This document shows positions 2-16,145 of a stretch of 16,145 nucleotides of DNA, in pieces. The notes beneath the pieces were generated by a model. It was not told where the DNA came from. It made no database searches and worked only from the letters and a program-made list of their open reading frames with translations. The translations under genes and the position numbers were made by a program. Every line of letters begins with the position of its first letter. The stretch's first letter is position 1. This DNA is from Pseudomonadota bacterium (GTDB lineage: Bacteria > Bdellovibrionota > FAC87 > UBA2466): the NCBI GenBank assembly GCA_043767805.1, contig JAYUGC010000044.1, forward strand, positions 1-16,145, written 5' to 3'.

Positions 2-898
2 CTCACCCCCGAGCAGCAAAGAAAGCTCGAAGGCGATTTCAATGCGGCCATTCAGGCCGCCCAGCAGAATCAGTATGAGAGTGCGGTCGAGTATCTGCGC
101 CGCATCCACTCGGTCTTGCCCTACTATAAGAACTCTCTCGAGCTCCAAGACCAGTACCTGAAGATCGTCAAAGATCGCCAGGTCGTGGACGCGCAAAAGC
201 GCGCGAAAGACGACGAGAAGCAAGACTTGCAGCTCTATCTCGAAGAAGGCTTGGACTACTTGAAGGGTGGCGACTTTGAGCGCGCCGCCGAAGCGTTCAA
301 CTCCGCCATCGTCATCGACCCGGCGAATCCCACAGCCATCCGGGGCCTCAAGGCCGCCGAGTTCAAGGTGAAGAGCCTCGACGAGATCCCGGCTGAGAAA
401 GACGACGAGCAGGAGAAGCGCAAAGTCGTGAGCGAGCTCTTTCAGCGCGCCGTTTCCGCTTTCACCAACAAGAGTTACCAGGAAGCCATCGATACGGCGG
501 AGAAGATCCGTAAAATCGAGCTTCGCGGCGATACCCAGTATCTAAACGAAGCGAAGCAGATCATCGATCGCGCCCGCATGCTCCAAAAAGAAGAGTTCGA
601 GCCTTTCCTCATCCAAGCGAAGGAAAAATACGCCGAAGGGGATTACAACGCGTCTCGCGATCTTTGCGAAGAGATGCTTAAACGCGACGGCTCTTACGAC
701 GAGGCCATCGAGCTACTCACGAAATCGAAGAAACAGCTCTATCGTCTCGCTAAAGAGGCTTACACGTACGGTTACATCCTGGAGAGCATGAACCGTATCG
801 AAGAAGCGAAGCAGTATTGGAACCGGGCGAAGAACTACGTGCGCCCCGGCGATGAGTACTACTCGAAGATTACGAAGAAGCTCGACTCTTACCAGTAA
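2..898 (+). CDS. Tetratricopeptide-repeat (TPR) protein, 5'-truncated by window edge
   Basis: The frame is open from base 2 (LTPEQQRKLEGDFNAAIQAA...) to TAA at 896-898, so the ORF-track start at 116 is internal. Several TPR-like helix pairs are present, e.g. EEGLDYLKGGDFERAAEAFNSAIVIDPAN, AKEKYAEGDYNASRDLCEEML and YGYILESMNRIEEAKQYWNRA. Confidence 0.85.
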   Translation, partial: LTPEQQRKLEGDFNAAIQAAQQNQYESAVEYLRRIHSVLPYYKNSLELQDQYLKIVKDRQVVDAQKRAKDDEKQDLQLYLEEGLDYLKGGDFERAAEAFNSAIVIDPANPTAIRGLKAAEFKVKSLDEIPAEKDDEQEKRKVVSELFQRAVSAFTNKSYQEAIDTAEKIRKIELRGDTQYLNEAKQIIDRARMLQKEEFEPFLIQAKEKYAEGDYNASRDLCEEMLKRDGSYDEAIELLTKSKKQLYRLAKEAYTYGYILESMNRIEEAKQYWNRAKNYVRPGDEYYSKITKKLDSYQ

Positions 899-1973
899 GA
901 CTCAAGGCGCAGAGCCCTGAGCAGCCCGCCAAGAGAAGCCCCATCTCTCCGAGTCCCCAATTCAAAGACAGGAAGGCTCCGTAAGCCAGCGTGCCCGTGA
1001 GGGCCATGAGGCCGTACGCAATGGAGACTGCTCCCGCTCCCGGGAAGGTTTCGCCGAGCCAATCGAGCAGCGAAAGCGCGAGAAACTCGTAGAAGAAAGC
1101 GGCCGCAACGACGAGTAAGAGACCAGCCAGGCGATCTTCCGTGGGAAGAAAGAAGTAACCCATCGCCATGAAGAGTAAGCAAAGCACGACGGCGACGCCG
1201 AAGGGAAGGGCCGCGCCCTTCTTGCTTCTGAGCTCACTCCAAAACAGAGATTTCCCCGCGGTCGCGAGGCCGAAGGCGAGGCTGCCGTAAGCGATGGGCG
1301 CGAGCGTCGTTCCCACGTCGAACGCGGCCAGCGGATCGGCCGTACCCAAGTACTTGGAAAGCATCTGGGTCAAAATCTGCACGCAGAGAGTAAGCCCAAC
1401 GAGACAAAGCGCCGCCCAAGCCGCGCCCCAGCCCAAATGCGATTTTTTCGACGAGTCGGTGCCCCGTTCGGCGGGAGTGAGCTTTCCGGCGGCCACGAGA
1501 TCGAGCGCTCCGGCCACGCCAAAGGCGAGGGCCGCAATGGGTAAGACGGCTTCGAGTCCGACGCTACCGAGGCGTTGAGCGCCGAGAAGCCCCAAGGTGT
1601 AACCCAACGAGTGCGCGAGCTCTACCCAGGGAAGACGGCCTTCCCGCCCGGCCGCGAGGTCGCTTCGAAAGGCGCGAGACACGAAGCTACAGCTGAACTG
1701 CAGGCAAAGCAGAGCGAAGGCGATTCTCTTATCCCCTCGAAGCGCCCAGGTAAGCGAGAGGGTGAACGCCGCTGAGGCGAGCGTCAGGAAGCCACCTACT
1801 CTCGCGATGCGCTTTCTGAAATTCAAGATGAGGCCGAGAGAAAGGGTCGAGCCGACCAGAAAGGCGAGGATGGAGTCACTGCCGGGACCGAAGGCGAACA
1901 TGCCTTTCGTGAGTAGGGCACTCGAGGCCAACGCGCCCAAAAAGTTCGCCGCGACTAGGAGTTTGAGCAACAC
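870..1973 (-). CDS. Polytopic membrane protein, divergent MFS-like transporter (candidate exporter for the mcc-like locus)
   Basis: 367 aa and very hydrophobic, with about 11-12 TM-like segments split into two halves by a polar loop (KLTPAERGTDSSKKSH). The GTG start lies 9 nt after the upstream gene's stop, suggesting co-transcription. The 3' end overlaps the convergent TPR gene by 29 bp. Confidence 0.65.
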   Translation of the reverse strand: MLLKLLVAANFLGALASSALLTKGMFAFGPGSDSILAFLVGSTLSLGLILNFRKRIARVGGFLTLASAAFTLSLTWALRGDKRIAFALLCLQFSCSFVSRAFRSDLAAGREGRLPWVELAHSLGYTLGLLGAQRLGSVGLEAVLPIAALAFGVAGALDLVAAGKLTPAERGTDSSKKSHLGWGAAWAALCLVGLTLCVQILTQMLSKYLGTADPLAAFDVGTTLAPIAYGSLAFGLATAGKSLFWSELRSKKGAALPFGVAVVLCLLFMAMGYFFLPTEDRLAGLLLVVAAAFFYEFLALSLLDWLGETFPGAGAVSIAYGLMALTGTLAYGAFLSLNWGLGEMGLLLAGCSGLCALSLTGKSRASS

Positions 1974-1982
1974 GGCTAAACC

Positions 1983-3512
1983 TTACTCCGGGAGGCAGGC
2001 GGAAAGCACCGCATACTTGAACGCCTCCTCACCTTCCACGATCACCTGATAGGGGTAATCCGTGGGCGGGCTCTTAACCTCAAAGCCCCGCGCGGAAAGA
2101 AAGCGGGCCAGGGACTCCAGCTCGAACTTGATGATGGAATAGAGCAGGATGCGCTCGCCTTTCGGAATCACCTGCTTGCCGTCCCAGGTGGTGAGCCGGT
2201 GTTTCAGCGTGTAATAGAAGCGGTACACCTGGCCGCGGATGCCTTGGGGGCTCGAGTAATCTTGCGCCGGGATGATGCTCTTGAACTCTTCGGCTTCGGC
2301 GTCGTAGAGAAACTCGCGATTCTTCTCGAGCGGAATGGGATTACCTTCGTCGTCCGTGGAAATGAGAAGCTCCAAGTCGTGCAAAAGATGCCGGGGAGTT
2401 TCCAGCGTGAACGGATCGAGCGTGTACTTTTCTTCGATGGGCGCGCCGTCTTCCTTGGGGCCTTTTCTCCGAAGTACCGAAGCGCCTACCAGGAAAGCGA
2501 GCGGTCTCGCGGTGCTGAAAGCTTCCTTCACGGAAACGAAGAAATCCCATTCGTGGTTCTCGTAATTGCCGATGCAATTGCCGAGAAACGTACAGACGGT
2601 GGGCGCGGGCTTGAAGAAGCCTTCTCCCATTTTCATTCTCGCCTGAGGCAGAATGGATTTCAGACGATAGAGATCGCCAATCACGGGGCAATACTTGAGA
2701 CGTCCCGTGCGCAGATCATCGGGAAAGCGTTCCTGAATGAGCTTCGAGTGGCTCATGAGGAGAATGTCGCTCGAATCGATGGCGAGGTACTCGATCTGCA
2801 AATTGCCTTTGCGCTTGAGTAAGCGTCTCAGAATTTCCGATTCGCCGAGACCTTCGCCGGGGGCGAGGGAAACGAGACAGATGCGGCCTTCGGTGGCGGC
2901 TTCGAAAAGCGTTTCCGGAATGCCATACGCGTCCATGGCTTCCGCTTCATAAATCTTTTTGTCGGCAGCGGTCTTGGTGGAAAAGCTGAGCCACCAGGCG
3001 GCCGCACGGTAGGTGCTATAGAGGCAAGCGAAGGGAAGGCCGCCGCCATCACGGACCAATTCGCGGGCAATGGCGCGCGGATCTTGAAGTCCCGCGCTTT
3101 CTTCGGCCACTCCCACGAGTCTTCCACCGACACTTGCTAACGGCTCGGCGGAGCCATCCGTATCCACTAATTCCATCTTCGACTCGCGGCCGACTTTGAG
3201 CGTCTTCAGCCGGAAGCGGACTTCGCTGCGGGGCAGCGTTTTGGAGAGCTCAGAGAGCGCTACCCGGAGCGTCGGAACCGGTAGAATGCCTCCGCCTTTG
3301 GTGGCTTTCTGAGGGGAGCGCACGGCTTTGCGCTTACGGATGATCTCGTTTATATCCCCATAACTAGCTGGATTTCCTCTTAAATCGAGGAGGGCTAGAA
3401 AGACCACTGAGCGGACCGTGGCGTTGTCGAGTTTCAGGGTATCGCGGAAGTCGAGAGCGCGGTCGCCCAGCCACTTCTGATATGCCGCCCCATCTATGGA
3501 CCACGTTTCCAA
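1983..3512 (-). CDS. Putative N-terminal winged-helix DNA-binding domain fused to an EgtD/EasF-like (Methyltransf_33) SAM-dependent methyltransferase domain
   Basis: C-terminal motifs are collinear with the EgtD family: LPFACLY (cf. LPPKYFY), LVSLAPGEG (cf. LIELGSG), YLAIDSS (cf. YVPIDIS), VIGDL, FLGNCIGNY (cf. FLGSTIGNF), FLVG. The N-terminal ~120 aa has a wHTH-like pattern (VFLALLDLRGNPASYGDINEII...TLRVALSELSKTL followed by a beta wing). TTG start preceded by an AAGGAAGG SD. Confidence 0.7.
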   Translation of the reverse strand: METWSIDGAAYQKWLGDRALDFRDTLKLDNATVRSVVFLALLDLRGNPASYGDINEIIRKRKAVRSPQKATKGGGILPVPTLRVALSELSKTLPRSEVRFRLKTLKVGRESKMELVDTDGSAEPLASVGGRLVGVAEESAGLQDPRAIARELVRDGGGLPFACLYSTYRAAAWWLSFSTKTAADKKIYEAEAMDAYGIPETLFEAATEGRICLVSLAPGEGLGESEILRRLLKRKGNLQIEYLAIDSSDILLMSHSKLIQERFPDDLRTGRLKYCPVIGDLYRLKSILPQARMKMGEGFFKPAPTVCTFLGNCIGNYENHEWDFFVSVKEAFSTARPLAFLVGASVLRRKGPKEDGAPIEEKYTLDPFTLETPRHLLHDLELLISTDDEGNPIPLEKNREFLYDAEAEEFKSIIPAQDYSSPQGIRGQVYRFYYTLKHRLTTWDGKQVIPKGERILLYSIIKFELESLARFLSARGFEVKSPPTDYPYQVIVEGEEAFKYAVLSACLPE

Positions 3513-3621
3513 AGTCTCTAGCCTTCCTTAAAACCACGCCGCCGCGGGCGCGTCTTCTTTATACCTGGCTTTGCCCGGGGTTACCAGGCACGAGGATACA
3601 TATATTCCGTATTTATTCATA

Positions 3622-3637
3622 TTGCATATGTATGCAA
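3622..3637. promoter_or_regulatory. Palindromic operator candidate TTGCATA-TG-TATGCAA in the divergent promoter region
   Basis: Perfect 7-bp inverted repeat with a 2-nt spacer inside an AT-rich island between the divergent genes. GCATATGT is present at 3624-3631 and again at 3682-3689. Confidence 0.55.
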
Positions 3638-3734
3638 CGTTTGTTATCTCTAAAGCAACTGATATGAAAGTCGGGCCGAGAGCATATGTCGGTTTTGGAA
3701 TTCTTCAACGGGACGAAACGCAAGGGGACGCAAC

Positions 3735-3758
3735 ATGAACGATCAGAGCTGGAACTAG
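3735..3758 (+). CDS. mccA: Microcin C-like precursor heptapeptide MNDQSWN
   Basis: ATG AAC GAT CAG AGC TGG AAC TAG with SD AAGGGGA at 3722-3728. It is 7 aa with a C-terminal Asn, like E. coli MccA (MRTGNAN), and lies 23 nt upstream of the mccB-like start. Confidence 0.88.
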   Translation: MNDQSWN

Positions 3759-3781
3759 AGAACGCCCAGTCCGGAGAGAGT

Positions 3782-4852
3782 GTGACGCCGTCCCCACGCA
3801 CGGGGCAATGGATCCTTTCTCCCTATGTCCGAGCCGGCCTGGATGGCGGCATCCTTTTCCTCGGGTTCGGCTCCCTGCAAAAGCAGGTGACCGATAGGCG
3901 GCGCCAGGAGCTGCTCCTCTCCACCTCGCACTTCTGGATGATTCCCTCGACCGTGAATGAGGCGCATGACTATCTCGTGAAACGTGCCGGCGCTTCCGAA
4001 GCTGAGGCCAAAGAGACCATCGATTTTCTTTTGCTGAACCGTTACCTCATTCGGCCCGACGCTTTTAAGTCGACCGATCGGTATGGGCGGCATGCTTTGT
4101 TCTACGCGCTTGCCGGTGCGGATCCTCAAATCGTTCAGGGAAAACTCGCGGCGAGCCACGTGGTCGTTCTTGGATGCGGCGGCATAGGCAATCAGATCGC
4201 CTGTGCCCTTGCCGCGGCGGGCGTGGGTAAGCTCACTCTCATCGATGAGGAGCCAGTCGAGATTTCTACGCTTACCCGACAGTTCGTTTTCGCGGAGAGC
4301 GATCTGGGACAGCCGCGCACGGAAACTTTGCGCCGTGAGCTCTCGCGCAGGGCTTCACAGACGGTGGTCGACATCGTGGACACACCGCTTCGAAAAGACG
4401 AGGACTTCGCGAGTATCCCCGACTGCGATTTGATTGTGGTCTCGGCGGATTCGGGTGGGCTCATGCCGCGTTTGAACGCGCACGCCGTCCGCCGCAAGAT
4501 TGCGTACGTGGATGTGGGCTTCGTGCAGGATGTGGCGGTGTGGGGACCGTTTGTGATTCCCGGCCGTACGGGCTGTCACGCTTGTCATTCGCTCGTTGCG
4601 ACGGAGCCCAAGCCCGGTGATTTGGCGTGGAGCCTCATCCGAGAGATCAACGGCCGCTACCAAGCGCCCGCGTTCGGCGCGGTGAACATGGCGTCCGCCT
4701 CTCATGCTTCGCTTGATTGTCTTCGTTACTTGGGAGGCTTCGGCCAAATCCAATCGCTCAACCAGCGCGTCGGCATCTGGACCCACGACCTGCACATCGA
4801 AACCCAGCCATGTCCCCGCAACCCAGCCTGCTCCGTCTGCTCGTTATCTTAA
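3782..4852 (+). CDS. mccB: MccB-like ThiF/E1-family peptide nucleotidyltransferase (microcin C synthetase homolog)
   Basis: Collinear with E. coli MccB along its whole length: WILSPYVR (cf. YILGRYVK), RYGRHALFY..GADPQIVQGKL, VVVLGCGGIGN, LTRQ, VVSAD, GFVQDVAVWGPFVIPGRTGCHAC, PAFGAVN, SLNQRVGIW, RNPACSVC. Both Zn-binding CxxC motifs are kept. The GTG at 3782 with GGAG SD (3773-3776) gives 356 aa, close to MccB size; the ORF-track start at 3686 would overlap mccA. Confidence 0.9.
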   Translation: MTPSPRTGQWILSPYVRAGLDGGILFLGFGSLQKQVTDRRRQELLLSTSHFWMIPSTVNEAHDYLVKRAGASEAEAKETIDFLLLNRYLIRPDAFKSTDRYGRHALFYALAGADPQIVQGKLAASHVVVLGCGGIGNQIACALAAAGVGKLTLIDEEPVEISTLTRQFVFAESDLGQPRTETLRRELSRRASQTVVDIVDTPLRKDEDFASIPDCDLIVVSADSGGLMPRLNAHAVRRKIAYVDVGFVQDVAVWGPFVIPGRTGCHACHSLVATEPKPGDLAWSLIREINGRYQAPAFGAVNMASASHASLDCLRYLGGFGQIQSLNQRVGIWTHDLHIETQPCPRNPACSVCSLS

Positions 4853-4876: not shown

Positions 4877-6325
4877 CTAGTCGAGGGAGATCCAGACCGA
4901 CTTTACTTGCGTGTAGAGCTCGATCGCGTACTTGCCGAGCTCGCGGCCAAAGCCGCTTTGCTTGAAGCCGCCGAAGGGCGAGGCCGCATCGAAGCAGTTA
5001 AAGCAGTTCACCCAAACGGTGCCGGCTTTGACTTGCTTCGCGAGACGGTGCGCTTTGCCGATGTCGCGCGTCCAGATGCCGGCCGAGAGACCGAACATCG
5101 TGTCGTTGGCCTGACGGACGAGATCTTCGTGGCTCTTGAACGAAATCGCAGACACCACGGGTCCGAAAATTTCTTCGCGGGCAATCGTCATGTCGTTGGT
5201 GACGCCTTCGAACACCGTGGGTTTCAAGAAGTAACCCTTCTCACGAGCCTTCATGCCGCCAGTGACGACTTTCGCGCCTTCCGCTTTGCCTTTTTCGATG
5301 TACCCCAAGATCTTATGGAACTGCTCGGAGGACACCTGCGCGCCCATGCGCGTCTTCGGGTCCATCGGATCGCCGACGACGATCTTTTCCGCGTTGGTTT
5401 TCAGTTTCGCGAGGAACTCGTCGTGCGCGCTTTCTTCGATGAAGAGACGCGAGCCGGCGCAGCAAACTTCGCCTTGGTTGAAGAAGATACCTCGCATGGC
5501 GCCCTGTACGGCCGCATCGAGATCGGCATCGGCGAATACGATGTTCGGGGCTTTACCGCCAAGTTCCAAAGACACACGTTTGAGAGAGAGAGACGCGAGA
5601 CGCATCACTTCTTTGCCGACTTCGGTCGAGCCGGTGAAGGCGACCTTGTCGACTTCGGGATGAGTCGCGAGCGCGGCGCCCGCCGTGGGACCAAAACCGG
5701 GAACGACGTTCAGCACCCCGGGAGGAAGGCCGGCTTCCTGAAAGAGCTCAGCCAGGCGCAAAGCAGAGAGAGGCGTTTGTTCAGCCGGCTTCAAGACGAC
5801 CGTGCAACCGGTCGCAATCGCAGGTCCTAGCTTCCACGCCGCCATGAGGAGCGGGAAGTTCCAGGGAATGATTTGGCCGACCACGCCCGCGGGTTCCCGC
5901 AACGTGTAGTTAAAAAAGTTTCCGTTCACGGGGATGGTGTCGCCGTGAATCTTGTCGGCAAGGCCCGCGTAGTACTCGAAGGTCTCGATGGCGAGCGGGA
6001 GATCCGCGTTCATCGTCTCGTAGATGGGCTTACCGTTATTTAAGGTCTCGAGCTCGGCAAACTCCGTTTTGTGTTTTTCGAGAAGAGCGGCAACGCGGTT
6101 CAGGATGCGGCCGCGCTCGCGGGCAGACATTTTCGGCCAGGCGCCCGACTCGAAAGCGCGGCGGGCGGAGCGGGCGGCGAGGTCGATATCGGCTTTGTCG
6201 CCTTCGGCGCACGTGGCCAGGACGGTTTCCGTCGCGGGGTTGAAAACCTCGAAGGTTTTGCCGCTGCGCGCGTCGCACCATTCGCCATTGATGAAAAGCT
6301 TACCATTCTTAACTTCCTGCGCCAT
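4877..6325 (-). CDS. NAD(P)-dependent aldehyde dehydrogenase
   Basis: Motifs [32 protein letters not shown], catalytic Cys in [19 protein letters not shown] and [13 protein letters not shown]. Confidence 0.97.
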
Positions 6326-6466: not shown

Positions 6467-6566
6467 AGCATTAACGGAAGGCGCGTGCCATTCGATCCCA
6501 CTTGAATCGAAGTAGGTAATCTTGGATATATACCCCCGCTTTTGCCAATCCTCTTTGGAGCCCCTC

Positions 6567-7091
6567 ATGAAAGCTAAATCCCTGCTTTTTTTGACGGTTA
6601 TTGCTGTGCTCGTTGGAAGTTGCGGGCTCAACCCGTTTCCGCCCGTCTCCGGCCCGGGCAATCCGATCACGGGGGGCCAGAAGGCCAAGCTAGTCGTCTT
6701 TGGGGGGGAATGGTGCGGTCAGTGCAAGGGGGACTTACCCTTTTTGCAAAGCTCCCTTCGGCAGCGGCTGGGCGCGGCGGCTAACGATGTTTCGGTGGAG
6801 CTTTGGGTGTCCACGGGCAAGACCCCGAGCGCTCCTCCCTACGTGGGTGGCCCCGAGTACTACCGCGATTTGCTGAAGTTAAATGCGAAGGCCGTCATGG
6901 ATGGCGAGCCCAACAAAAAGCCGGTTCGCTGGCCTAAATTCGTCGAGCTTTTTCCGAACGTCCGCAGAGAGCTTCCCGCCGCTGTCCTTTTTAGGGCGGA
7001 CGGGACCATCTACAAAAAGTTTCCGCCCGGACAAGACACGTTCAATCCCGCAGATATTGTTGCAACCGTCGCCGAAGTTCTGAATAAATAG
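6567..7091 (+). CDS. Thioredoxin-fold lipoprotein (WCGQC)
   Basis: ATG at 6567 with a GGAG SD. Signal peptide and lipobox MKAKSLLFLTVIAVLVGS-C, active site FGGEWCGQC, and a cis-Pro-like ELPAAVLF motif. Confidence 0.8.
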   Translation: MKAKSLLFLTVIAVLVGSCGLNPFPPVSGPGNPITGGQKAKLVVFGGEWCGQCKGDLPFLQSSLRQRLGAAANDVSVELWVSTGKTPSAPPYVGGPEYYRDLLKLNAKAVMDGEPNKKPVRWPKFVELFPNVRRELPAAVLFRADGTIYKKFPPGQDTFNPADIVATVAEVLNK

Positions 7092-7100
7092 GAGTTACCC

Positions 7101-7598
7101 ATGTTTCGTCCTTGGATAATTCTAGGCTCATTACTGTGCTCGTTCGCGTTCGGTAAAACAGCTCCGCTGTTTCATGCGGAGGCTTTGGGCGGCAAGAACG
7201 TATCGCTCGCGGAAACACTGAAGCCCAATCGCGGTGTACTCATTTGCTTCTGGGCCAGCTGGTGCACGCCGTGTATCGAGGAATTGAAGCATGTGGGGGA
7301 GTACGTGAAGGCGCACCCTGAGTTCCCGCTCGATGTGGTGACGGTGAACGTCGACACTTCGGAGACTTCCTCGGATGTCGCGCCCACGGTAAAGCTCTAC
7401 GGAATCAACTTTCCCGTGGTGCTCGATCCGAATCACGAGATCTTCGCCAAGTATCAGTCCGCGAAACAGCTTCCCTTTTCGGTTCTAGTGAATGGCCAAG
7501 GGCAAATGGAAAAAACCTTTCAAGGGTATCAGCCTGACCTTTTCACGCAGATTGACGTTGCACTAAAGGGGAACTCGGATGCAAGCCAGAAGAACTAG
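7101..7598 (+). CDS. TlpA/ResA-family thiol-disulfide oxidoreductase
   Basis: Signal peptide, FWASWCTPCIEEL, VVTVNVD, FPVVLD and LPFSVLVN motifs; AGGAG SD. Confidence 0.92.
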   Translation: MFRPWIILGSLLCSFAFGKTAPLFHAEALGGKNVSLAETLKPNRGVLICFWASWCTPCIEELKHVGEYVKAHPEFPLDVVTVNVDTSETSSDVAPTVKLYGINFPVVLDPNHEIFAKYQSAKQLPFSVLVNGQGQMEKTFQGYQPDLFTQIDVALKGNSDASQKN

Positions 7599-9063
7599 CA
7601 TTCTGTTTTGCGCTCTGATGTCGTTTTCCGCTCACGGCGCCGTCCTGGAAGGCCCGGCCTCGGAAGCGACGGTGGCCATCGCCGGTCACACGCTCGTTTT
7701 TAGCCGCCACGATCAACAAGACGTCACCGCCCCTCACCAAGATCTCATGTTGCACGAGACGACGGTGAGAACGGGGTACCGTCAGTATGGGCTTGGCGTC
7801 GAGTTCACGAGCCAGCTGCCTTTCTCGACGCAATCGGGAAACAACAAGCCTTTCACTTTAGAGAAGAAATACCTCACCGCCGATTGGGACAAGTGGAAGC
7901 TCGACCTCGGCGATAGTCACCTGGAGCTGGGTAAGGGTCTTGCGCTGTCTCTGTATCGCGACCCGGTCTTCGGCATCGACAATACTTTAGAAGGCGCTTC
8001 GGCTCGCTACTCTTCGAACGGCATGAAAGCCGGGCTTTTCGCGGGCCGCTTGAACGCGCTTCGTGTCCCGGTGGCTTTGAATCCCGTCGGCTACCCGATT
8101 CTCAATCGCCAGGTCTTCCTCGGTGGCGGCGACATCAAGGGCAAAGTGCTGCCCTCAATGACCGTGGGCGGACACTATCTTTTCGCCGCGAATCGTCCCG
8201 ATAACGGGCCGGGCGTCGATCGACGCTGGCATACGGTGGGCGCCTCGGTTTCCCGCGAAGGCGCGAATGACGGCGTCGATGCTTATCTCGAGAGCAATGT
8301 GCTTCTCACCCAGCGTGTCGGCACCGTCCGCAACGAGAGCCTGCCGAACGGTTTTGGAACGTATGCGTCTTTGAGCTACGTGCCGGCTCCGTGGAAGTTT
8401 CGGATCGAAGGTAAGGATTATCGCGATTACCGCTTCGAGTTCCGCCGCCCCCCGACTTTGGAAGAAGATATCGTCCAGACCATCAACACCCAAGACGTCT
8501 CGGCGGCGAAGATGTCAGCGGAGTATCGTTTTCTCGAAGCACGGGCTTTCACGCGGGCGTCTTATTTGTTCGGCGAAGATCGCGTGAAAAAGAGCCCCAT
8601 CCACCACACCGTTTTGTCGGGTGGGTTTAAGGGCCCCGGAAAAACTTCTTGGGAGATGAACGCTGGTTATCGCTACATGCCTCAAGTGGCCGATCTCACG
8701 CACGCCGGTATCAAGTCGAAGGTGCCCACCTTTGAAGGGCAAAGTATGGAAGTGGGCTTGCGCCGGGTATTCAACCGTACCGTTGTCGGCCAGAGCGTCA
8801 CGCGCGACGATAAGAACATCCTCGACCTGACTTACAATTTCTCGGCGAAGTTCAATCTCGGCGCGGGTGTCGAGTTCGTACCCACCAATACCGAAGAGGT
8901 AGGCAAGCGCTTCTTGAGTGCCTCCGCGACGGTGAAGCTAGGCGCTTTCCTCGCCAAAGCCTTCGTCGGTACGACGAGTGGCGGCACACTCTGCTCGGGC
9001 GGCGTTTGTCGTCAGGTGCTCCCGTTCTCGGGTGGCGCGCTCGAGTCCACTTACTCCTTCTAG
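7579..9063 (+). CDS. DUF6029-like outer-membrane beta-barrel protein
   Basis: Signal peptide, amphipathic beta strands and C-terminal Phe (STYSF). Contains LGKGLALSLYRDPVFGIDNTLEG and a C-terminal GGTLCSGGVCRQV motif that I recall as typical of DUF6029, which usually sits beside a TlpA gene. Confidence 0.75.
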   Translation: MQARRTSILFCALMSFSAHGAVLEGPASEATVAIAGHTLVFSRHDQQDVTAPHQDLMLHETTVRTGYRQYGLGVEFTSQLPFSTQSGNNKPFTLEKKYLTADWDKWKLDLGDSHLELGKGLALSLYRDPVFGIDNTLEGASARYSSNGMKAGLFAGRLNALRVPVALNPVGYPILNRQVFLGGGDIKGKVLPSMTVGGHYLFAANRPDNGPGVDRRWHTVGASVSREGANDGVDAYLESNVLLTQRVGTVRNESLPNGFGTYASLSYVPAPWKFRIEGKDYRDYRFEFRRPPTLEEDIVQTINTQDVSAAKMSAEYRFLEARAFTRASYLFGEDRVKKSPIHHTVLSGGFKGPGKTSWEMNAGYRYMPQVADLTHAGIKSKVPTFEGQSMEVGLRRVFNRTVVGQSVTRDDKNILDLTYNFSAKFNLGAGVEFVPTNTEEVGKRFLSASATVKLGAFLAKAFVGTTSGGTLCSGGVCRQVLPFSGGALESTYSF

Positions 9064-9085
9064 GGCTTAGTGGTAGGCTCATCTC

Positions 9086-9577
9086 ATGAGCCGCTATTTT
9101 TTGCTTTTTTTCCTTTCGTTTCCAGCCTTCGGGGCGGACGTCTCCACGTTAAAAACCAACGGTGATTTGGACGCCGCCGTGAAATATTGCGTTAAGAATT
9201 TTCCCAAGGGAGCGACTTCCTCGCAGGAGGGTTTCGAGGAGTGCGTTCGCTCGGCACTGGCGACGTATTTCAATGCCGTGGTGAAGCTCACCTGGGCGAC
9301 TGATCCTAAGACGCCGCTCGTAGCGGCGGCCGCCGCGCCCACCAATACGCCGGTGCCCACGCCCGCGATCGATCGCGCGAAGGAAGAAGCGCGCGCCAAG
9401 GAACAATTTAAGATCCTCGTGAAGTCGGTCACGTGTCAGCGTTGTCACGTCGGTCTAAATGCCTCGCAGTATACGCTCTCGCAAATGCACGCGGTGCTGA
9501 CTACGCCGTCGCATCAGGAACATTTGGGCCCCAAGGATCAAGAGCTCATTAGAAAGCTTGGGACGATGGTCCAGTGA
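9086..9577 (+). CDS. Secreted protein with a single heme c-binding motif (putative c-type cytochrome)
   Basis: Signal peptide ending PAFG-A, CQRCH motif, downstream Met/His candidate ligands, and a Pro/Ala-rich linker. Confidence 0.6.
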   Translation: MSRYFLLFFLSFPAFGADVSTLKTNGDLDAAVKYCVKNFPKGATSSQEGFEECVRSALATYFNAVVKLTWATDPKTPLVAAAAAPTNTPVPTPAIDRAKEEARAKEQFKILVKSVTCQRCHVGLNASQYTLSQMHAVLTTPSHQEHLGPKDQELIRKLGTMVQ

Positions 9578-10026
9578 TGATGACTTATTCCGTTCGGCGG
9601 GCGACTCGGGACGACAAGGAGGCGTGGGTCGGTTTGCGCTCGTGCCTTTGGCCGGACGCTCCTGCCGCCGATCACGCGGCGGATGGAGAGACGATTTGGG
9701 AAAAGTATCTTGAAGCGGCGGTCTTTCTCGCGCTCGACCAGACCGGAAAAGCGGTGGGTTTCGCGGAAGTGTTTTTGCGCGGCTTTGCGAGCGGCTGCGA
9801 CACGAGTCCGGTCGTGTTTTTAGAGGGCATCTGGGTGAACCCCGTCGCGCGCGGAAAAGGCGCCGGCCGAAAGCTCGTCGAAGCGTGCGCGGGGTGGGGG
9901 CGCGAAGTCGGCTGCAAAGAGCTCGGCTCCGGCGCGCTCCTCGACAACAAAGCGAGCCACGTCGCTCACAAAGCCTGGGGCTTTGAGGAGACCGAGCGAG
10001 TGATCTACTACCGAATGAAGCTTTAG
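9574..10026 (+). CDS. GNAT acetyltransferase, AAC(6')-Ic/Iy-like family
   Basis: Motifs WVGLRSCLWP, GFAEV.LR...GCDTSPVVFLEGIWV.P.ARGKG.GRKL, GCKELGS.ALLDN.ASH..HKAWGFEETERVIYY. Translationally coupled to the upstream gene (GTGA overlap). Confidence 0.88.
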   Translation: MMMTYSVRRATRDDKEAWVGLRSCLWPDAPAADHAADGETIWEKYLEAAVFLALDQTGKAVGFAEVFLRGFASGCDTSPVVFLEGIWVNPVARGKGAGRKLVEACAGWGREVGCKELGSGALLDNKASHVAHKAWGFEETERVIYYRMKL

Positions 10027-11079
10027 TTACTTCAGCGACTGATTGAACTTCTTCAGGAAGTCCGGACCCGGATCGAGATCTTTCTCCATCAGCGCGTAGA
10101 GCGCCTCGTCCGGCATCTGTCCGATGTCGGAAAGGGTCGGCTGGTCCGCCTTGTAATAGAGCAGACCAGTGAGAAGCTCTTTCGTTTTCTTGCACTCGTC
10201 GAGAGCCTTGAACGCCGACATCTTGCTAGTCGGGTCATAATCCTTCGTGAGCGGCTTGATCGTGAGGGTCGAGCCGTCATGGAGCGTGATGCTCTGGGAC
10301 TCGCCTTCTTTCGTCTCGATCGCGATTTCGTTGAAGAAGGGAACGAAGCCGAGCTCTTGCATCGGGGTTTCATGCTCTTTCACGAAGTCGTAGCTCTTCG
10401 TCGATCCTTCGTGGTTGTTGAAGGTGACGCAGGGGCTGATGATGTCCAGGACCGCGATGCCTTTGTGGGCATGGGCGGCTTTGAGAAGCGCGACGAGTTG
10501 TTTGCGATCGCCCGAGAAGGAGCGGGCCACGAAGGTGGCGCCCAATTCAATCGCGACGGCGGCGCAATCCATGACCGGGTACGGGTTCGGCGCGCCTTTT
10601 TTGGCGAGCGAGCCCTGATCCGCAGTGGCCGAGAACTGACCCTTGGTCAAACCGTAGGTGCCGTTGTTCTCGATGATGTAGACCATGTCGACGTTACGGC
10701 GCACGACGTGGCAGAACTGGCCCATGCCGATGCTCGCCGTATCGCCGTCACCGCTGATGCCGATGGCCGAAAGCGTGATGTTGGCGAGCTTCGCGCCTTG
10801 CGCGACCGACGGCATGCGGCCGTGGACGCTGTTGAATCCGTGCGACCGATCCAGGAAGTAGGTCGGGGTCTTCGAGCTACAGCCGATGCCGGAGAACTTC
10901 ATCACTTCGTACGGCTGAACTCCCAGCTCGTAGTACGCCTGGATGATGGCGTTGGTGATGGAGTCATGTCCGCACCCCTTACAAAGGGTCGAGGGCTTAC
11001 CCGTGTAATCCGTACGGGGGAGGCCCAGGCGGTTGCAATTTGCGGCCGGTGCTGCGGGTGTCGTCGTTGGGGTAGACAT
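10027..11079 (-). CDS. korB: 2-oxoacid:ferredoxin oxidoreductase beta subunit
   Basis: LCKGCGH, SGIGCSSK, HGR, TPP-binding GDGD...NN motif, YGLTKGQFS and SPCVTFN. Confidence 0.93.
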   Translation of the reverse strand: MSTPTTTPAAPAANCNRLGLPRTDYTGKPSTLCKGCGHDSITNAIIQAYYELGVQPYEVMKFSGIGCSSKTPTYFLDRSHGFNSVHGRMPSVAQGAKLANITLSAIGISGDGDTASIGMGQFCHVVRRNVDMVYIIENNGTYGLTKGQFSATADQGSLAKKGAPNPYPVMDCAAVAIELGATFVARSFSGDRKQLVALLKAAHAHKGIAVLDIISPCVTFNNHEGSTKSYDFVKEHETPMQELGFVPFFNEIAIETKEGESQSITLHDGSTLTIKPLTKDYDPTSKMSAFKALDECKKTKELLTGLLYYKADQPTLSDIGQMPDEALYALMEKDLDPGPDFLKKFNQSLK

Positions 11080-11081
11080 GA

Positions 11082-12863
11082 TTAAGCTCCCAATTCTTTC
11101 TTAAGTTCCCGTTCCACAAGATCCGAGGACAGGGGGAATCCGCCGTAGTAAGTGAGCGAGCGCATCTTGGAGTTGTAGCCGGGAAGGTCCCACTCGAGCA
11201 GGGCGCGCATCTGTTTGTCGCGGTTTTGTTCGACCACGATAACTTTATCACAGCCCTTGATGAACTCTTCGACTTCGGACGAGAACGGATAAGCGCGCAG
11301 GCGCATGTACTTCACGTTCTTGTTCTGGATGCGATCCATGGCCTCGATGACCGCGGAGTCCGACGTGCCGTAGGCGATGATGCCGATCTTGGCGCCGGGA
11401 CTGCCGTGCATGACGGGCTTCGGAACGTGCTTCTTCGCCGTGTGCCACTTGCGGAGCAAGCGGTCGACGTTACGGGTGTACGCTTCCGGGCGCTCGGTGT
11501 AGCGCGCGAACTCATCGTGACCCGAGCCGCGAGTGAAGTAGCCGGCGCGGATGTCCGGGTTGCCGGGAAGGGTGCGGTACGGGATGCCGTCGCCGTCGAC
11601 GTCATTGTATCGTCCCCAGCCGTTCAACTTGTCGTCTTTGGCTTGGAGGACTTTACCGCGGTCGTATTGCGGCTTTTTGTACTCGAAATCGTCGTCAATC
11701 CAGTTGTTCATGCCGAGATCGAGATCGCTCATCACGAAGACGGGCGTCTGGAAGCGCTCGGACAGGTTGAAGGCATCGTTGGCCATCTCGAAGCACTCTT
11801 TGGGAGTGGAGGGGATGACGAGAATGTGTTTCGTGTCGCCATGGCCCGAGCCCGCGCACATGCGATAGTCGCCTTGTTGGGTGCGCGTGGGGAGACCCGT
11901 CGAGGGGCCGACGCGCTGGATGTTCCAGATGACGGCCGGCACTTCGGCGTAATAAGCGAGGCTCAAGAACTCCTGCATGAGCGAGATTCCGGGGCCGGAG
12001 GTGGAGGTCATCGCCCGGGCTCCCGCCCAGCCGGCGCCGATCACCATGCCGATGGCCGCGAGCTCGTCTTCCGCCTGAACGATGGCGTAGTTGAGCTTTC
12101 CGTCTTTACGGACGCGCGTTTTCTTGAGGTAGCCTTCCATCGATTCCGCGAGAGAGCTCGACGGAGTGATGGGGTACCAGGCGACGACCGTGCAACCGGC
12201 GTAAACGGAGCCGAGCGCGCCGGCGGCATTGCCTTCGATGAAAATTTTATTGTCGTTGAGGTCGGCTTTCGCGAACGTGAAACGATCCTTCTTTTCGAAG
12301 TTCGCTTTCGCGTAGTCGATTCCGATTTGGAGCGCTTCCATGTTGGCGTCGATGGCGGACTGCTTCGACTTGAACATGTCGCGGATGACGCCTTTGAGAA
12401 CTTCTTCGTCCAGGTCGTAGAGGTGCTTCATCACTCCGACGTAGAAGAGATTCTTAAGTAGTGTTCGGAGCTTGGCGTTGGTAATTTTCTTCGACAGTTC
12501 CTCTACGGGAAGCGCGTACATGATCATGCCAGGCTTGATCTGCTCCGGCGTGAACTTGATGATGTCCGAGTTGTAGAGAATCGTGGAGCCGGCGCGCATT
12601 TCGCCGATGTCCTGGGCTCCGGTGTCCTTGTTCATGAGAACGGCGATGTCGTCGTGCTCGCGCAAGTTTTGGTATCCCTTCGGGCTTACCCGAATTTGGA
12701 ACCAGGTCGGAAGGCCCTGGATATTCGACGGAAACATGTTCTTGCCGCAGACGCCGACGCCCATCCGGAACAGTGTTTTGTAGAGGATGTTGTTGGAAGA
12801 TTGGCTGCCGGTACCGTTGACGGTGGCAACGCGGAAACTGAAATCGTTAATTAGTTTGTCCAT
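11082..12863 (-). CDS. korA: 2-oxoacid:ferredoxin oxidoreductase alpha subunit (fused gamma domain)
   Basis: NGTGSQS, YPITPSS, QAEDELAAIG, TSGPGISLM and QRVGPSTGLPTRTQQGD motifs. Confidence 0.93.
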   Translation of the reverse strand: MDKLINDFSFRVATVNGTGSQSSNNILYKTLFRMGVGVCGKNMFPSNIQGLPTWFQIRVSPKGYQNLREHDDIAVLMNKDTGAQDIGEMRAGSTILYNSDIIKFTPEQIKPGMIMYALPVEELSKKITNAKLRTLLKNLFYVGVMKHLYDLDEEVLKGVIRDMFKSKQSAIDANMEALQIGIDYAKANFEKKDRFTFAKADLNDNKIFIEGNAAGALGSVYAGCTVVAWYPITPSSSLAESMEGYLKKTRVRKDGKLNYAIVQAEDELAAIGMVIGAGWAGARAMTSTSGPGISLMQEFLSLAYYAEVPAVIWNIQRVGPSTGLPTRTQQGDYRMCAGSGHGDTKHILVIPSTPKECFEMANDAFNLSERFQTPVFVMSDLDLGMNNWIDDDFEYKKPQYDRGKVLQAKDDKLNGWGRYNDVDGDGIPYRTLPGNPDIRAGYFTRGSGHDEFARYTERPEAYTRNVDRLLRKWHTAKKHVPKPVMHGSPGAKIGIIAYGTSDSAVIEAMDRIQNKNVKYMRLRAYPFSSEVEEFIKGCDKVIVVEQNRDKQMRALLEWDLPGYNSKMRSLTYYGGFPLSSDLVERELKKELGA

Positions 12864-13840: not shown

Positions 13841-13917
13841 GGGGTGGTAGTTCAGTTGGTTAGAACGCCTGCCTGTCACGTAGGAGGTCGCGGGTTCGAG
13901 TCCCGTCCGCCCCGCCA
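13841..13917 (+). tRNA. tRNA-Asp (GTC)
   Basis: 77-nt cloverleaf: acceptor stem GGGGTGG/CCGCCCC, D arm AGTTCAGTTGGTTAGAAC, anticodon arm CCTGC-CTGTCAC-GTAGG, T arm GCGGGTTCGAGTCCCGT, discriminator G and encoded CCA. Confidence 0.98.
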
Positions 13918-13925
13918 TTTACTTT

Positions 13926-15248
13926 CTAAGATCGCGTTTTCACTAATCTTAAAAAATTTGGATCAGAGCTTGGGGGACATTGGGGGACAGGCGCACTGCG
14001 TTCCTGTCCAAAATTCCCCGCAACGCTGTCCCCCGGGGGGACAGCATCCAACGCATTTTTCGTGAGCACCCCATTGAGGGCGTCCGCGATTTTGTGCTTC
14101 GATGCGTTTGTCTGAGTGACGTATCTCAGCGTTACATTCGGTGAAGAATGATCGAGGTGTTTCGAGACTGCGTAAAAATCGCCCGTCGCCTCGTTGGCCA
14201 GAGTTGCCGAGGTTTTCCTCAGCATATGGGTTCCACGAACATTCTTGATGCCCAATCTCTCCAGCGCCCGGTTGTAGGCTTTCGCCACCGTTTGCCGATT
14301 CATGGGCTTTCCGTTGTTGTGGAAAACAAAGGGCACATTGGGGTTTCGGATCTTTTCGAGTCTCTTCAACTCCTCTACCAAGAGTTGCGGCATCACTAGC
14401 ACCCGAACTTTCCCATTCTTTGGTCTCTCCTTCACCCGGGGTTCCCAGGTGATTTGATCCCAATCAATGGTGCGTTCGATACGAATGATCCGATTCTTCA
14501 GATCCAGAGCCTCCCAGGTCATCCCCGCCAATTCTCCAATTCTTAACCCCAAACAAAACTGTGCTAGGGCCATCGAAGAGAAGATCGGGCTTTTTGACTT
14601 CTTGAGATCCTGCAAGAACAGCGACAACTCTTCTTGGCTCAAGCTCTGAACGGGAGCTTGTGCCTTTTTAGCGATGTCCGCTGCCCTATAGTGTTCATCA
14701 AGAATCGGGATGAGGTAACTTGGGTCGATCCGCTTCCGGTAGAAATTGAGGATCACTTTGAGAAGGTTCAGTTCCTTTTCAAAGGTGTGCCTCGGTCCCC
14801 CTTTCGGGTAACTCTTCACCCAAAACGAGATCAACGCATCAATGAGTGAAGTGTCGATCTCCTCAACTTTAGTACGCGTCAAGAAATCCAGATTTGGAAG
14901 TCGCTTTTCGTATGTCTGTTGAGTGCTTCGTTCGAGTTGCAGAAAGTGGAATGGTTTCCACCGTTCGACAAGCTCTCCGAAAGTTAGCCGTCCATCACTG
15001 CGATGGATCATGTTCCGGGGAGCGTTGTTACCTATTGGGGCCTTTTCAATTTCACCTTGGCGAAATCGAAGCGCATCTTCGAGACTATCGAAAACGGCTT
15101 GCTCCTTTCGGGAGATTCCGTTTTCGACAATTCGCCTCATGGCTCTGTACTTACCCGTTTCTCTCCATTTTTTTGTTTGGCCATCAAACTCCAGTCTTTT
15201 GGAAATTCCTGGATAGTTTCTGACCGGCTGTTCTTTACGTGTGATCAT
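13926..15248 (-). CDS. int: Tyrosine recombinase / phage-type integrase
   Basis: Complete catalytic set: GLRIGE (R), PKNG (K), HMLRK (HxxR), HLDHSS (H), TLRY (Y). N-terminal arm-binding-like and core-binding regions are present. Confidence 0.95.
   Translation of the reverse strand: MITRKEQPVRNYPGISKRLEFDGQTKKWRETGKYRAMRRIVENGISRKEQAVFDSLEDALRFRQGEIEKAPIGNNAPRNMIHRSDGRLTFGELVERWKPFHFLQLERSTQQTYEKRLPNLDFLTRTKVEEIDTSLIDALISFWVKSYPKGGPRHTFEKELNLLKVILNFYRKRIDPSYLIPILDEHYRAADIAKKAQAPVQSLSQEELSLFLQDLKKSKSPIFSSMALAQFCLGLRIGELAGMTWEALDLKNRIIRIERTIDWDQITWEPRVKERPKNGKVRVLVMPQLLVEELKRLEKIRNPNVPFVFHNNGKPMNRQTVAKAYNRALERLGIKNVRGTHMLRKTSATLANEATGDFYAVSKHLDHSSPNVTLRYVTQTNASKHKIADALNGVLTKNALDAVPPGDSVAGNFGQERSAPVPQCPPSSDPNFLRLVKTRS
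13970..14045. repeat. Four GGGGGACA boxes (candidate integrase arm-type sites)
   Basis: Tandem TTGGGGGACA at 13970-13979 and 13980-13989, plus the inverted pair GCTGTCCCCC-G-GGGGGACAGC at 14025-14045. Confidence 0.65.
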
Positions 15249-15496
15249 CTAGTGCCTCCTTTTTGGAGCCACTCAGCGATCTTCACTGGTGAGAAACGAA
15301 CCGATCGCCCTACTTTGGAGTAGGGGATCTTGTTGCCCGACATTAGCTTGTAGACGTGGCGAACGGAGACGGAAAGTTCCCGCGCCACATCGTCCACCGA
15401 CCATACCAACTTTTCAAAGACCGGAGCCCGAGGATTCAAGGGCTTATCGATAGAAGAGATACTACATATAGGGATGACATTTGGCAATTTATTCAT
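15245..15496 (-). CDS. xis: Excisionase-family helix-turn-helix protein
   Basis: WSVDDVARELSVSVRHVYKLMSGNKIPYSKVGRSVRFSPVKIAEWL fits the HTH_17/MerR-like Xis pattern. It overlaps the int start by 4 nt. Confidence 0.88.
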   Translation of the reverse strand: MNKLPNVIPICSISSIDKPLNPRAPVFEKLVWSVDDVARELSVSVRHVYKLMSGNKIPYSKVGRSVRFSPVKIAEWLQKGGTR

Positions 15497-15570
15497 GGCG
15501 TTAATCCGGCGGTAAGTGTTTGATTTCAGGCGGGAAATTTCCGAAGAAAAACTTAATAAATTCTGCTATT

Positions 15571-15590
15571 ATAGTATCATCTGATACTAT
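15571..15590. promoter_or_regulatory. 20-bp palindrome ATAGTATCA-TC-TGATACTAT (operator candidate)
   Basis: Perfect 9-bp arms in the AT-rich xis/fic divergent spacer, 6 nt before the fic ATG, overlapping -10-like TATTAT/TATAGT hexamers. Confidence 0.65.
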
Positions 15591-15596
15591 CAATTT

Positions 15597-16145
15597 ATGT
15601 CGAATAAACCGATCTTCTCGATAACGTCCAACATGCTCCTTCGGTGCACCGAGATCACCCAATTGCTAGGTCGTTACGAAGGGCTGATGAGTCCCCGCCC
15701 CCAGCCTTTGCTGCGTCGGCAAAATCGAATCCGCACCATCCGGGACAGTCTGGCGATTGAGGGAAACCGGCTTACGCTCGACCAAGTGAGCGCCATTTTC
15801 GATGGAAAAAAAGTCTTAGGCCCGTTGAGAGAGATCCTGGAAGTCACGAACGCGATCAAAGTCTACGAGAAAGCTCCCTTCTTTGATCCTTCGTCGTCCA
15901 AGGCCCTGCGAAAGGCGCACGGGATTTTGATGAAGGGGCTCGTCGAAGACGCAGGGCAATGGCGGGCAACCGATGTCGGAATTTTGAAGGGCTCGAAAGT
16001 GTCCCACCTTGCTCCCCCCGCAAGACTCGTGGCGGGACTCATGGAAGATCTTTTTCTGTATCTGAAGAACGAGAAGGCTATTCACGCGCTCATCAAGTCC
16101 AGCATCTTTCACTACGAGCTTGAGTTCATCCATCCGTTTTCGGAC
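15597..16145 (+). CDS. Fic-family protein (AMPylase), 3'-truncated by window edge; absent from the ORF track
   Basis: Manual translation is open for 183 codons: MSNKPIFSITSNMLLRCTEITQLLGRYEG...RIRTIRDSLAIEGNRLTLDQV...AGQWR...HYELEFIHPFSD. It ends at the start of the Fic motif HPFxDGNGR and includes the inhibitory motif SLAIEGN. Confidence 0.93.
   Translation, partial: MSNKPIFSITSNMLLRCTEITQLLGRYEGLMSPRPQPLLRRQNRIRTIRDSLAIEGNRLTLDQVSAIFDGKKVLGPLREILEVTNAIKVYEKAPFFDPSSSKALRKAHGILMKGLVEDAGQWRATDVGILKGSKVSHLAPPARLVAGLMEDLFLYLKNEKAIHALIKSSIFHYELEFIHPFSD

Follow-up and report, generated by a model that had tools for sequence, protein, structure and literature searches.

The window analysed here is the whole stretch of 16,145 nucleotides (nt) of contig JAYUGC010000044.1, from a member of the Bdellovibrionota, and the gene under study lies at 1983..3512 on its minus strand (stop codon 1983-1985). 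It encodes MT509, a protein of 509 amino acids (aa) in which a basic, winged-helix-like N-terminal domain is joined to a methyltransferase domain of the EgtD (Methyltransf_33) type. The reading frame begins with a TTG codon, directly upstream of which stands the Shine-Dalgarno-like sequence AAGGAAGG, and a sigma-70 promoter scan of 800-4000 returned no sites. Nine nucleotides after its stop codon, on the same strand, starts the gene of a 367-aa orphan polytopic membrane protein (870..1973), here referred to as the partner, with a GGAG that overlaps that stop codon. Judging by its conservation in related genomes, this pair is a small two-gene unit that is separate from the neighbouring microcin C-like genes. 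MT509 belongs to the Methyltransf_33 superfamily; it places a known fold in an architecture that is both new and conserved, and its partner falls into no known family.

The AlphaFold model of MT509, derived from a 17-sequence alignment (mean pLDDT 81, pTM 0.66), has three parts. Residues 1-118 (3159..3512, on the minus strand like all positions within the gene) are the basic N-terminal domain, with a predicted winged-helix topology. Residues 119-141 (3090..3158) are a linker of low conservation, with pLDDT below 50 across residues 120-141, and residues 142-509 (1986..3089) make up the EgtD/Methyltransf_33-type domain, which consists of a Rossmann core and a substrate-binding half. Within this last domain lie motif I, SLAPGEG (residues 215-221; 2850..2870), in which Ala217 takes the place of the first glycine family-wide, and GNCIGN (residues 311-316; 2565..2582), whose Asn316 is aligned with Asn166 of EgtD.

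In a word-indexed search of 5.8 billion proteins, MT509 matched 17 further proteins at E ≤ 0.001, and because of these matches the open reading frame (ORF) is taken as a real gene. Sixteen of the 17 align over 94-100% of the length of MT509, with identities of 40-83%, and the remaining one is a 399-aa fragment. A family profile made from 17 proteins was then scored against one representative per 50% cluster of approximately 15 billion proteins, and it found 127 proteins at E ≤ 0.001, of which 88 reach E ≤ 1e-10 and 66 reach E ≤ 1e-30. With 127 representatives among 1.84 billion proteins, this is a small family. The N-terminal domain is kept in 35 of the best 40 profile rows, in which the match starts within the first 33 profile positions; four of the 40 start at or after position 54, and one is ambiguous. 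Related loci were collected from a scan of one genome per species (GTDB), which yielded 20 of them, spanning Bdellovibrionota-type metagenome-assembled genomes, Legionellaceae, Coxiellaceae, and other Gammaproteobacteria, and Acidobacteriota (Pyrinomonadaceae).

The original prediction for this gene was that of a Methyltransf_33-like domain, and this is borne out by Pfam, profile-profile, and structure matches. The Pfam family PF10017 scores 33 bits on MT509 against a cut-off of 23, in a match that is partial, since residues 212-344 correspond to profile positions 64-177 of 304 (114 positions). Alignment by hhalign with seven ordinary Methyltransf_33 proteins (about 320 aa), which were first verified by Pfam and by EgtD structures (E 7.6e-14), gave a probability of 99.4% and an E value of 2.2e-21. 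This match spans residues 156-482 of MT509, and the whole EgtD domain is therefore present. The check by AlphaFold and Foldseek that had been proposed for the C-terminal domain was run on the MT509 model and points the same way: the first ten places among the PDB matches are held by EgtD chains (E 1.4e-9 to 1e-8, target TM 0.50-0.64, identity 14-16%), which are followed by glycine N-methyltransferase, AzeJ, and other class I enzymes. Sequence searches of the PDB returned no match at E ≤ 1 with the MT509 family profile, no match with P0118, and a chance match only (E 1.3) with the C-terminal 370 residues of MT509. The C-terminal domain is a full-length, very divergent domain of the EgtD/Methyltransf_33 type.

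The residues of MT509 and EgtD were mapped onto each other by chained alignments, from the family to its ordinary relatives and from these to the EgtD chains, and conservation was counted across 20 aligned family members, which represent three phyla. In the S-adenosylmethionine (SAM) loop, S215, A217, and G219 of MT509 correspond to E84, G86, and G88 of EgtD, respectively, so that SLAPGEG is the counterpart of E84-L-G-S-G-T-S90. D246 and D280 correspond to D113 and D141, which, from general knowledge of class I methyltransferases, we take to be the ribose-binding and adenine-binding acids. In the substrate pocket, Y165, W174, and N316 correspond to Y39, F47, and N166. A217, D246, Y165, W174, and N316 are identical in all 20 members and D280 in 19; A217-x-G219-E-G221, D246, and D280 are conserved in 18-20 of the 20, and GNCIGN is invariant across the family save at position 314 (I, L, or M). 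The family also has invariant motifs of its own, which include TPRHL and VYRFYY. In the available text of PMC8593015, Asn166 of EgtD hydrogen-bonds the α-amino group of the substrate, Tyr39 and Phe47 line the substrate pocket, Tyr56, Tyr206, and Ser284 hold the substrate carboxylate, and E282 and T213 make the imidazole contacts. The equivalents of Y56, Y206, S284, E282, and T213 could not be mapped confidently, and the carboxylate-binding residues are not placed in MT509, since gaps interrupt the profile alignment in this region, around residues 357-385; Y363 as the equivalent of Tyr206 is only a guess.

The SAM loop of MT509 had been described as a variant one. The sequence SLAPGEG is present at residues 215-221 as stated, but the variation is only mild, for an acidic residue within the loop is common to the ordinary relatives (e.g., LGCGDG). 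By the alignment, the true departures of MT509 are the alanine in place of the first glycine and the loss of the leading acid.

An ordinary EgtD, that is, the ordinary histidine trimethylase that had been named as the contrary outcome, is rejected because of a low equivalog score and a gene context without egt genes. The EgtD equivalog model of NCBIfam (TIGR03438) gives MT509 only 22.7 bits against a cut-off of 290.9. The reported absence of egtB and egtC nearby holds among the window ORFs scanned with Pfam, and none of egtB, egtC, egtE, or egtA was found among these or among the 100 flanking ORFs of the 20 loci.

A homologue of the partner is found in 19 of the 20 loci, and 16 loci have it immediately downstream of the methyltransferase gene and in the same orientation. 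The one exception is L019, whose contig ends 384 nt after the methyltransferase gene. No other gene is conserved among the 100 flanking ORFs. The partner has 8-12 hydrophobic segments, and its conserved polar residues are R100, R103, D158, T195, Q199, and E296. In its database form, P0211, it has 343 aa, as would result from initiation at Met25, 24 codons downstream; the better start is nevertheless the GTG at 1973, because the homologue alignments begin at residue 3 and Asn10 is nearly invariant. The partner family comprises 77 database clusters, which are called 'hypothetical protein' wherever the source names them. In a language-model search, MFS_1 was found in 21 of the partner's 30 nearest clusters (scores 0.96-0.97), which is a lead and not an alignment, and on its sequence the partner looks transporter-like.

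The association of the two proteins is also seen in a natural fusion, P0053 (824 aa), in which residues 12-394 align with the partner (E 2e-11) and residues 426-796 with residues 122-481 of MT509 (E 2e-41). P0053 has no winged helix. This fusion argues that the enzyme and the partner act together, with the C-terminus of the partner presumably in the cytoplasm, and the lack of a winged helix shows that the core function can do without this domain. Neither the partner nor P0053 had an NCBIfam match, and a search for more fusions with P0053 as the query returned P0053 itself only.

The N-terminal domain, as assigned by DSSP in two models, contains helices at residues 8-22 and 33-43, a one-residue strand at 49, helices at 51-61 and 79-96, and a hairpin of strands 100-107 and 110-117. 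In the AlphaFold models these elements give the topology H-b-H-H-b-b, which is that of a winged helix. Residues 62-78 form a basic insert that is specific to the subclade of the window protein. The model of the domain alone, from 19 sequences, has a pLDDT of 81.6 and a pTM of 0.78, and the best score in an Atlas feature search with this domain was 0.80. The winged-helix core (residues 30-118 and their equivalents) is basic in all 19 members, with net charges from +1 to +13 (net +10 and pI 11.0 in the window protein), and R83 in the third helix is invariant. Most of the structure matches listed are winged-helix proteins, and the DNA binders among them are ArsR, the MarR-type AbfR, YodB, PadR, Fur, CzrA, the Cdc6/Orc1 winged helix, FOXO3a, and SaeR (OmpR-type). 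The winged-helix fold class of the MT509 N-terminus is thus supported qualitatively by the models, and this basic domain would be an accessory regulatory head.

The DNA upstream of the gene offers candidate sites for such a head. The divergent intergenic region of 222 nt between MT509 and mccA (3513..3734) is conserved in L001, the closest related locus, and it contains the palindrome TTGCATA-tg-TATGCAA (3622..3637), a candidate operator of which L001 has a copy with one mismatch. When short words are counted against a background that is mostly coding, so that the ratios are inflated by the AT-rich composition of intergenic DNA, TATGCA occurs 11 times in 1,505 nt (220 nt upstream of each gene; six of seven Bdellovibrionota-type sequences) versus 13 times in the other 101 kb, AGAACGTTCT (with up to two mismatches) occurs 15 times in 3.5 kb upstream of the gene in nine of the ten gammaproteobacterial loci versus 58 times in 127.8 kb elsewhere, and the 7-mer AACGTTC is 37-fold enriched upstream relative to the rest of the loci. 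The enrichment of TATGCA is seen with either divergent neighbour, mccA-mccB or a histidine kinase gene, and AGAACGTTCT is not enriched upstream in other clades. Words of the AAGAAC(G/A)TTC type, in one to three close copies plus half-sites per region, are found within the 300-350 nt upstream in L007-L010, L012, L015, L016, L019, and L020.

The reading that we prefer, tentatively and at somewhat less than an even chance for the package as a whole, is that of a membrane-coupled, SAM-dependent N-methyltransferase and transporter module whose winged helix regulates its own operon. MT509 would be the cytoplasmic enzyme of this two-gene module, and its C-terminal 370 residues would bind SAM and methylate the amino group of an amino-acid-like small molecule. 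The enzyme would act at the inner face of the membrane, and the partner would carry either the substrate or the product of methylation through it. The winged helix would bind the clade-specific palindromic repeats in its own promoter region and either repress or activate the operon, which would make MT509, by analogy, an enzyme-repressor of the BirA/PutA type. The architecture itself, the conserved adenosine- and amine-binding positions, and the obligatory membrane partner, once fused to the enzyme, are matters of observation.

Several observations, besides the inflated word ratios and the unplaced carboxylate residues already mentioned, weigh against this reading. None of 17 members of the partner family has a Pfam match at E ≤ 10, MFS_1 included; no solved transporter was matched by the partner profile in a PDB profile search; and the halves of the partner have no detectable 6+6 repeat (N half versus C half, 0.4%). 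P0053 is a single sequence, from one contig of 37.9 kb. A SIR2_2-TPR gene embedded in the Acidobacteriota clusters, described below, is easier to reconcile with a conflict system than with a metabolic module. For the N-terminal domain model no PDB match was found at E ≤ 0.001, the best being ArsR 6j0e_B (E 0.057, TM 0.43), and the same match list holds the N-terminal dimerisation domains of plant O-methyltransferases. The basic, winged helix-turn-helix (HTH)-like N-terminus of the original prediction therefore stands as to its basic charge and its topology, which the AlphaFold models recovered, but not as to a significant fold match, nor as to an HTH family, for Pfam found no family, HTH or other, in this domain of any of 19 members.

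The repeats might also belong to another protein. Small genes of no known family lie upstream of the module in gammaproteobacterial loci, and in seven of the ten such a small divergent gene could encode the actual repeat binder. These genes form one family of 140-163 aa (L008 2636-3106, L009 4642-5112, L016 7124-7570, L020 5064-5486, and L014 7041-7532) and another of 93-94 aa (L010 3990-4274 and L015 7438-7719). They match no Pfam or NCBIfam family, and their C-terminal HTH-like look is by eye only. The repeats, however, are also present in L007, L012, and L019, which have other neighbours, and this favours the winged helix, the sole DNA-binding-type domain common to all these loci, as their putative binder.

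The same domain might instead be a protein-contact module, used for dimerisation or for docking on the partner and not for DNA binding, with the enzyme and the partner working as proposed above. Such a role is unlikely in our estimate, but it deserves serious attention. The O-methyltransferase chains 4pgh, 4pgg, 6i5z, 6iwt, and 1zga (caffeic acid and isoflavone enzymes) are near the N-terminal fold (E 0.29-0.57), and in plant-type O-methyltransferases the N-terminal winged-helix-like domain builds the dimer. The absence of a Pfam HTH in 19 of 19 members also speaks for protein contact, as does the length of the loop that joins helix 2 to helix 3 (62-78 in MT509), the turns of the classical HTH being short, and as does the dispensability of the domain in P0053 and in Acidobacteriota paralogues of 378-380 aa. 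On the other hand, a core that is basic in 19 of 19 members, an invariant arginine in the third helix, nearest folds that are mostly DNA-binding regulators, and clade-specific palindromic repeats upstream of the gene are more readily reconciled with DNA binding.

The nature of the substrate admits a further reading, in which it is a membrane lipid head group with an amino-acid-like amine (for example an aminolipid, or a head group of the serine or ornithine type) that the partner presents or flips. SAM enzymes that N-methylate bacterial lipid head groups exist, namely BtaB, OlsG, and PmtA. The obligatory pairing of the enzyme with a polytopic membrane protein, once by fusion, and the conservation of the amine-binding Asn and of the EgtD-pocket aromatics would both suit such a substrate. 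Yet no sequence feature points to a lipid, no conserved lipid-synthesis genes lie nearby, and no similarity to BtaB, OlsG, or PmtA appeared in any search, so that a lipid substrate has a slim chance only.

The neighbours of the preferred N-methyltransferase and transporter module differ between the phyla. Histidine kinase genes are found near it in five Bdellovibrionota-type loci (L002-L006), in four of them divergently upstream. In all three Acidobacteriota loci (L011 3116-9497, L017 20-4693, and L018 6820-12938), a gene for a SIR2_2-TPR protein of 649-673 aa lies inside the cluster, between the membrane and the methyltransferase genes and co-directional with the membrane gene, and its product matches the PADLOC models of pAgo-associated SIR2 (E 2.6e-21). 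In L011 and L018, a second methyltransferase copy of 378-380 aa without a winged helix precedes the long one.

These Acidobacteriota clusters bring in the possibility of a conflict or signalling system, in which the SAM-binding domain would sense or make a signal that contains adenosine, nucleic acid would be read by the winged helix, and the membrane protein would act as effector. The embedding of the SIR2_2-TPR gene in three of three Acidobacteriota clusters, together with the winged-helix-less enzyme paralogue in at least two of the three, speaks for it. Among distant Methyltransf_33 relatives, P0102, P0121, P0122, and P0124 carry a fused TIR_2, CAP12-PCTIR_TIR, or protein kinase domain, which suggests a use of the EgtD fold in conflict or signalling proteins as well. 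The patchy spread over three phyla and the variable, partly mobile neighbours (RhuM, TraI, HNH, and AAA_14/PDC-S01) would be expected of such a system as well. However, PADLOC gave no match at E ≤ 0.1 for the enzyme, for its short paralogue, or for the membrane protein, and the PADLOC matches among 95 scanned neighbours are mostly generic helicases, ATPases, or kinases. The TIR fusions are no closer to the MT509 family than ordinary EgtD-like proteins are (E 1e-5 to 1e-9), the catalytic-type motifs are strictly conserved, and the known signalling defence systems have short effectors, which a membrane protein of many segments does not resemble. We therefore regard a conflict function as quite unlikely.

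On the other side of the 222-nt intergenic region, and outside the conserved module, lie the microcin C-like genes. The first is an mccA-like heptapeptide ORF, MNDQSWN (3735..3758, plus strand), which has seven codons, ends in Asn, and is preceded by AAGGGGA. It is followed on the same strand by an mccB homologue (3782..4852), which is open from 3686 and whose likely start is the GTG at 3782, after GGAGAGA. The mccB product matches PDB MccB chains with E 1.7e-63 over query residues 42-386, with the N-terminal peptide-binding part included, and by this alignment it is a true MccB homologue. MNDQSWN is encoded identically, with a different stop codon, in L001 (approximately 4960-4985, minus strand of that locus), where the same mccA-mccB arrangement is kept; L001 has two extra ORFs (192 and 313 aa) between mccB and an aldehyde dehydrogenase gene, and the window is without them. 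The microcin C-like context that had been put forward for this locus is thus real, with a true mccA and mccB pair divergently adjacent to MT509.

From the portion of PMC4010828 available, mccABC is the minimal arrangement, MccC is an exporter of the MFS type, MccE and MccF are immunity proteins, and the Yersinia mcc cluster includes methylase domains. No gene of the MccC, MccE, or MccF type adjoins mccB in the window, and no MccD homologue stands beside the pair. The sole GNAT gene of the window (9574-10026, plus strand) lies approximately 4.7 kb away, and its product, with 135.3 bits against a cut-off of 140 for the AAC(6') group E model, is more like the aminoglycoside 6'-N-acetyltransferases than like MccE. 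Since no MccC-, MccE-, or MccF-type gene flanks mccB, it was reasonable to suppose, as had been done, that MT509 methylates the processed aspartyl-nucleotide for self-immunity or tailors the peptide or a fragment of it.

Such service to the microcin C-like system, with the membrane protein as the exporter that replaces MccC, has several points in its favour. A genuine mccA-mccB pair shares the intergenic region with MT509, the arrangement is kept in L001, and the mccB gene is left without its usual companions although, in what is available of PMC4010828, the minimal cluster needs mccABC. The chemistry, aimed at an α-amine (N316 corresponding to N166), would also parallel the acetylation by MccE described in the same text. 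The comparison of the loci, however, argues against it. By tblastn, an MccB homologue is found in only one of the 20 related loci, namely L001, although at least 3 kb of sequence is available on the mccB side in 17 of them, and the partner is present in 19 of 20; Pfam ThiF was likewise found only in L001 among the 100 neighbours scanned. In the other Bdellovibrionota-type loci a histidine kinase gene occupies the position that mccA-mccB holds in this lineage, and the candidate operator words recur upstream of homologues without mcc genes. With the proteins of the E. coli plasmid MccC7-H22, hhalign gave the enzyme a probability of 0.24% against MccD and the partner one of 0.09% against MccC, with single-sequence templates and hence limited sensitivity.

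These results leave little of the options in which MT509 acts on mcc products, and a pair serving the microcin C-like system is very unlikely; the reading of MT509 as a gene dedicated to mcc is rejected on the comparative genomics. The module, so far as gene order tells, predates the mcc genes and is independent of them, and the adjacency of mccA-mccB appears as a feature of this lineage only and not of the module's function. As for the third option raised at the outset, control of the divergent promoter through the HTH, it is plausible from the upstream words that the winged helix controls its own operon, and not that its control is dedicated to mcc.

A different connection with microcins can be conceived, in which the pair protects its carriers against Trojan-horse aminoacyl-nucleotide antibiotics, as a resistance cassette that is widespread and free-standing. 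Methylation of the released aminoacyl-adenylate mimic at its α-amine by the enzyme would be the chemical equivalent of what MccE does by acetylation; the product would be expelled by the partner, and the operon would be turned on through the winged helix. In this lineage, a two-gene mccA-mccB producer would have settled beside the cassette and would rely on it, instead of on MccC, MccE, and MccF, for immunity and export. Homologues of MccE and MccF are, as a rule, orphan immunity genes in non-producers, and for this reason the absence of mccB from the other loci is compatible with such a cassette. We nevertheless give this proposal a very small probability indeed.

The remainder of the window has little contact with the module. 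From 6522 to 9577 on the plus strand run four genes, for a 189-aa CxxC protein, an AhpC/TSA-redoxin, a DUF6029 protein (494 aa), and a 163-aa protein, which may be an envelope thiol-redox cluster. A tRNA-Asp gene (13841-13917) is followed by a tyrosine integrase gene (13926-15248, minus strand), an HTH_17 excisionase-like ORF (15245-15496, minus strand), and a Fic-domain gene (15597-16145) that runs off the end of the window. The GC content falls to 0.48-0.50 across 13841-16145, which is probably the edge of an integrated element. MT509 is not a part of this tRNA-Asp island, which begins approximately 10 kb from it, beyond the tRNA gene. Long antisense or overlapping ORFs at 2199-2822 (+), 4907-5830 (+), 9455-10195 (-), 10279-11085 (+), and 11226-12461 (+) are probably chance open frames of GC-rich DNA.

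No description of the architecture of MT509 or of its pairing with the partner was found in a literature search with subscription journals largely outside its coverage, and the papers returned for PF10017 are mostly on Plasmodium. Among the carriers of the module are predators (Bdellovibrionota) and lineages known as intracellular parasites of amoebae (Legionellaceae and Coxiellaceae). If the module does make and move a methylated amine, as the preferred reading has it, this would point to a novel metabolite, and MT509 would be a new addition to the enzymes that control their own genes.

EgtD-family enzymes are soluble makers of amino-acid betaines, and here the EgtD fold is tied, and once fused, to a membrane protein of no known family, and carries a DNA-binding-type head in addition. 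MT509 shares with EgtD the fold, homology over the whole domain, the ribose- and adenine-binding acids, the G-x-x-x-G-N motif with the amine-binding Asn, and the equivalents of Y39 and F47. It differs in being only 14-16% identical, in the alanine that replaces the first glycine of motif I, in its own invariant motifs, in the extra N-terminal winged helix, and in the obligatory membrane partner.

With the microcin C system (MccC, MccD, and MccE), the likeness lies in the position of MT509 beside a true mccA-mccB pair and in the combination of an amine enzyme with a membrane protein, which could in principle supply immunity and export. In contrast, there is no profile similarity to MccC or MccD, and the pair occurs without MccB in 19 of the 20 loci. 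This may serve as a caution for work on microcins, for the gene beside this mccA-mccB pair is probably outside the pathway.

Fused MFS/spermidine-synthase-like proteins are known, in which a class I methyltransferase fold is combined with an MFS-like membrane domain, and P0053 likewise has its membrane domain first. The catalytic domain here is of the EgtD type, however, and no NCBIfam model matched the partner or the fusion. Plant-type O-methyltransferases also have a winged-helix-like domain N-terminal to a class I methyltransferase, and they are among the nearest folds of the MT509 N-terminal domain. They belong to another methyltransferase subfamily, and the matches to them are weak, whereas the domain of MT509 is strongly basic and is followed by a disordered linker.

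A parallel in organisation may be drawn with BirA, PutA, and NadR, which are enzyme-repressor fusions ('trigger enzymes') and in which, as in MT509, a DNA-binding-type head is joined to a metabolic enzyme. PutA alternates between the membrane and its operator, and a membrane-coupled MT509 with palindromes in its own promoter region would parallel this behaviour. These proteins have no sequence or fold relation to MT509, and the likeness is by analogy only.

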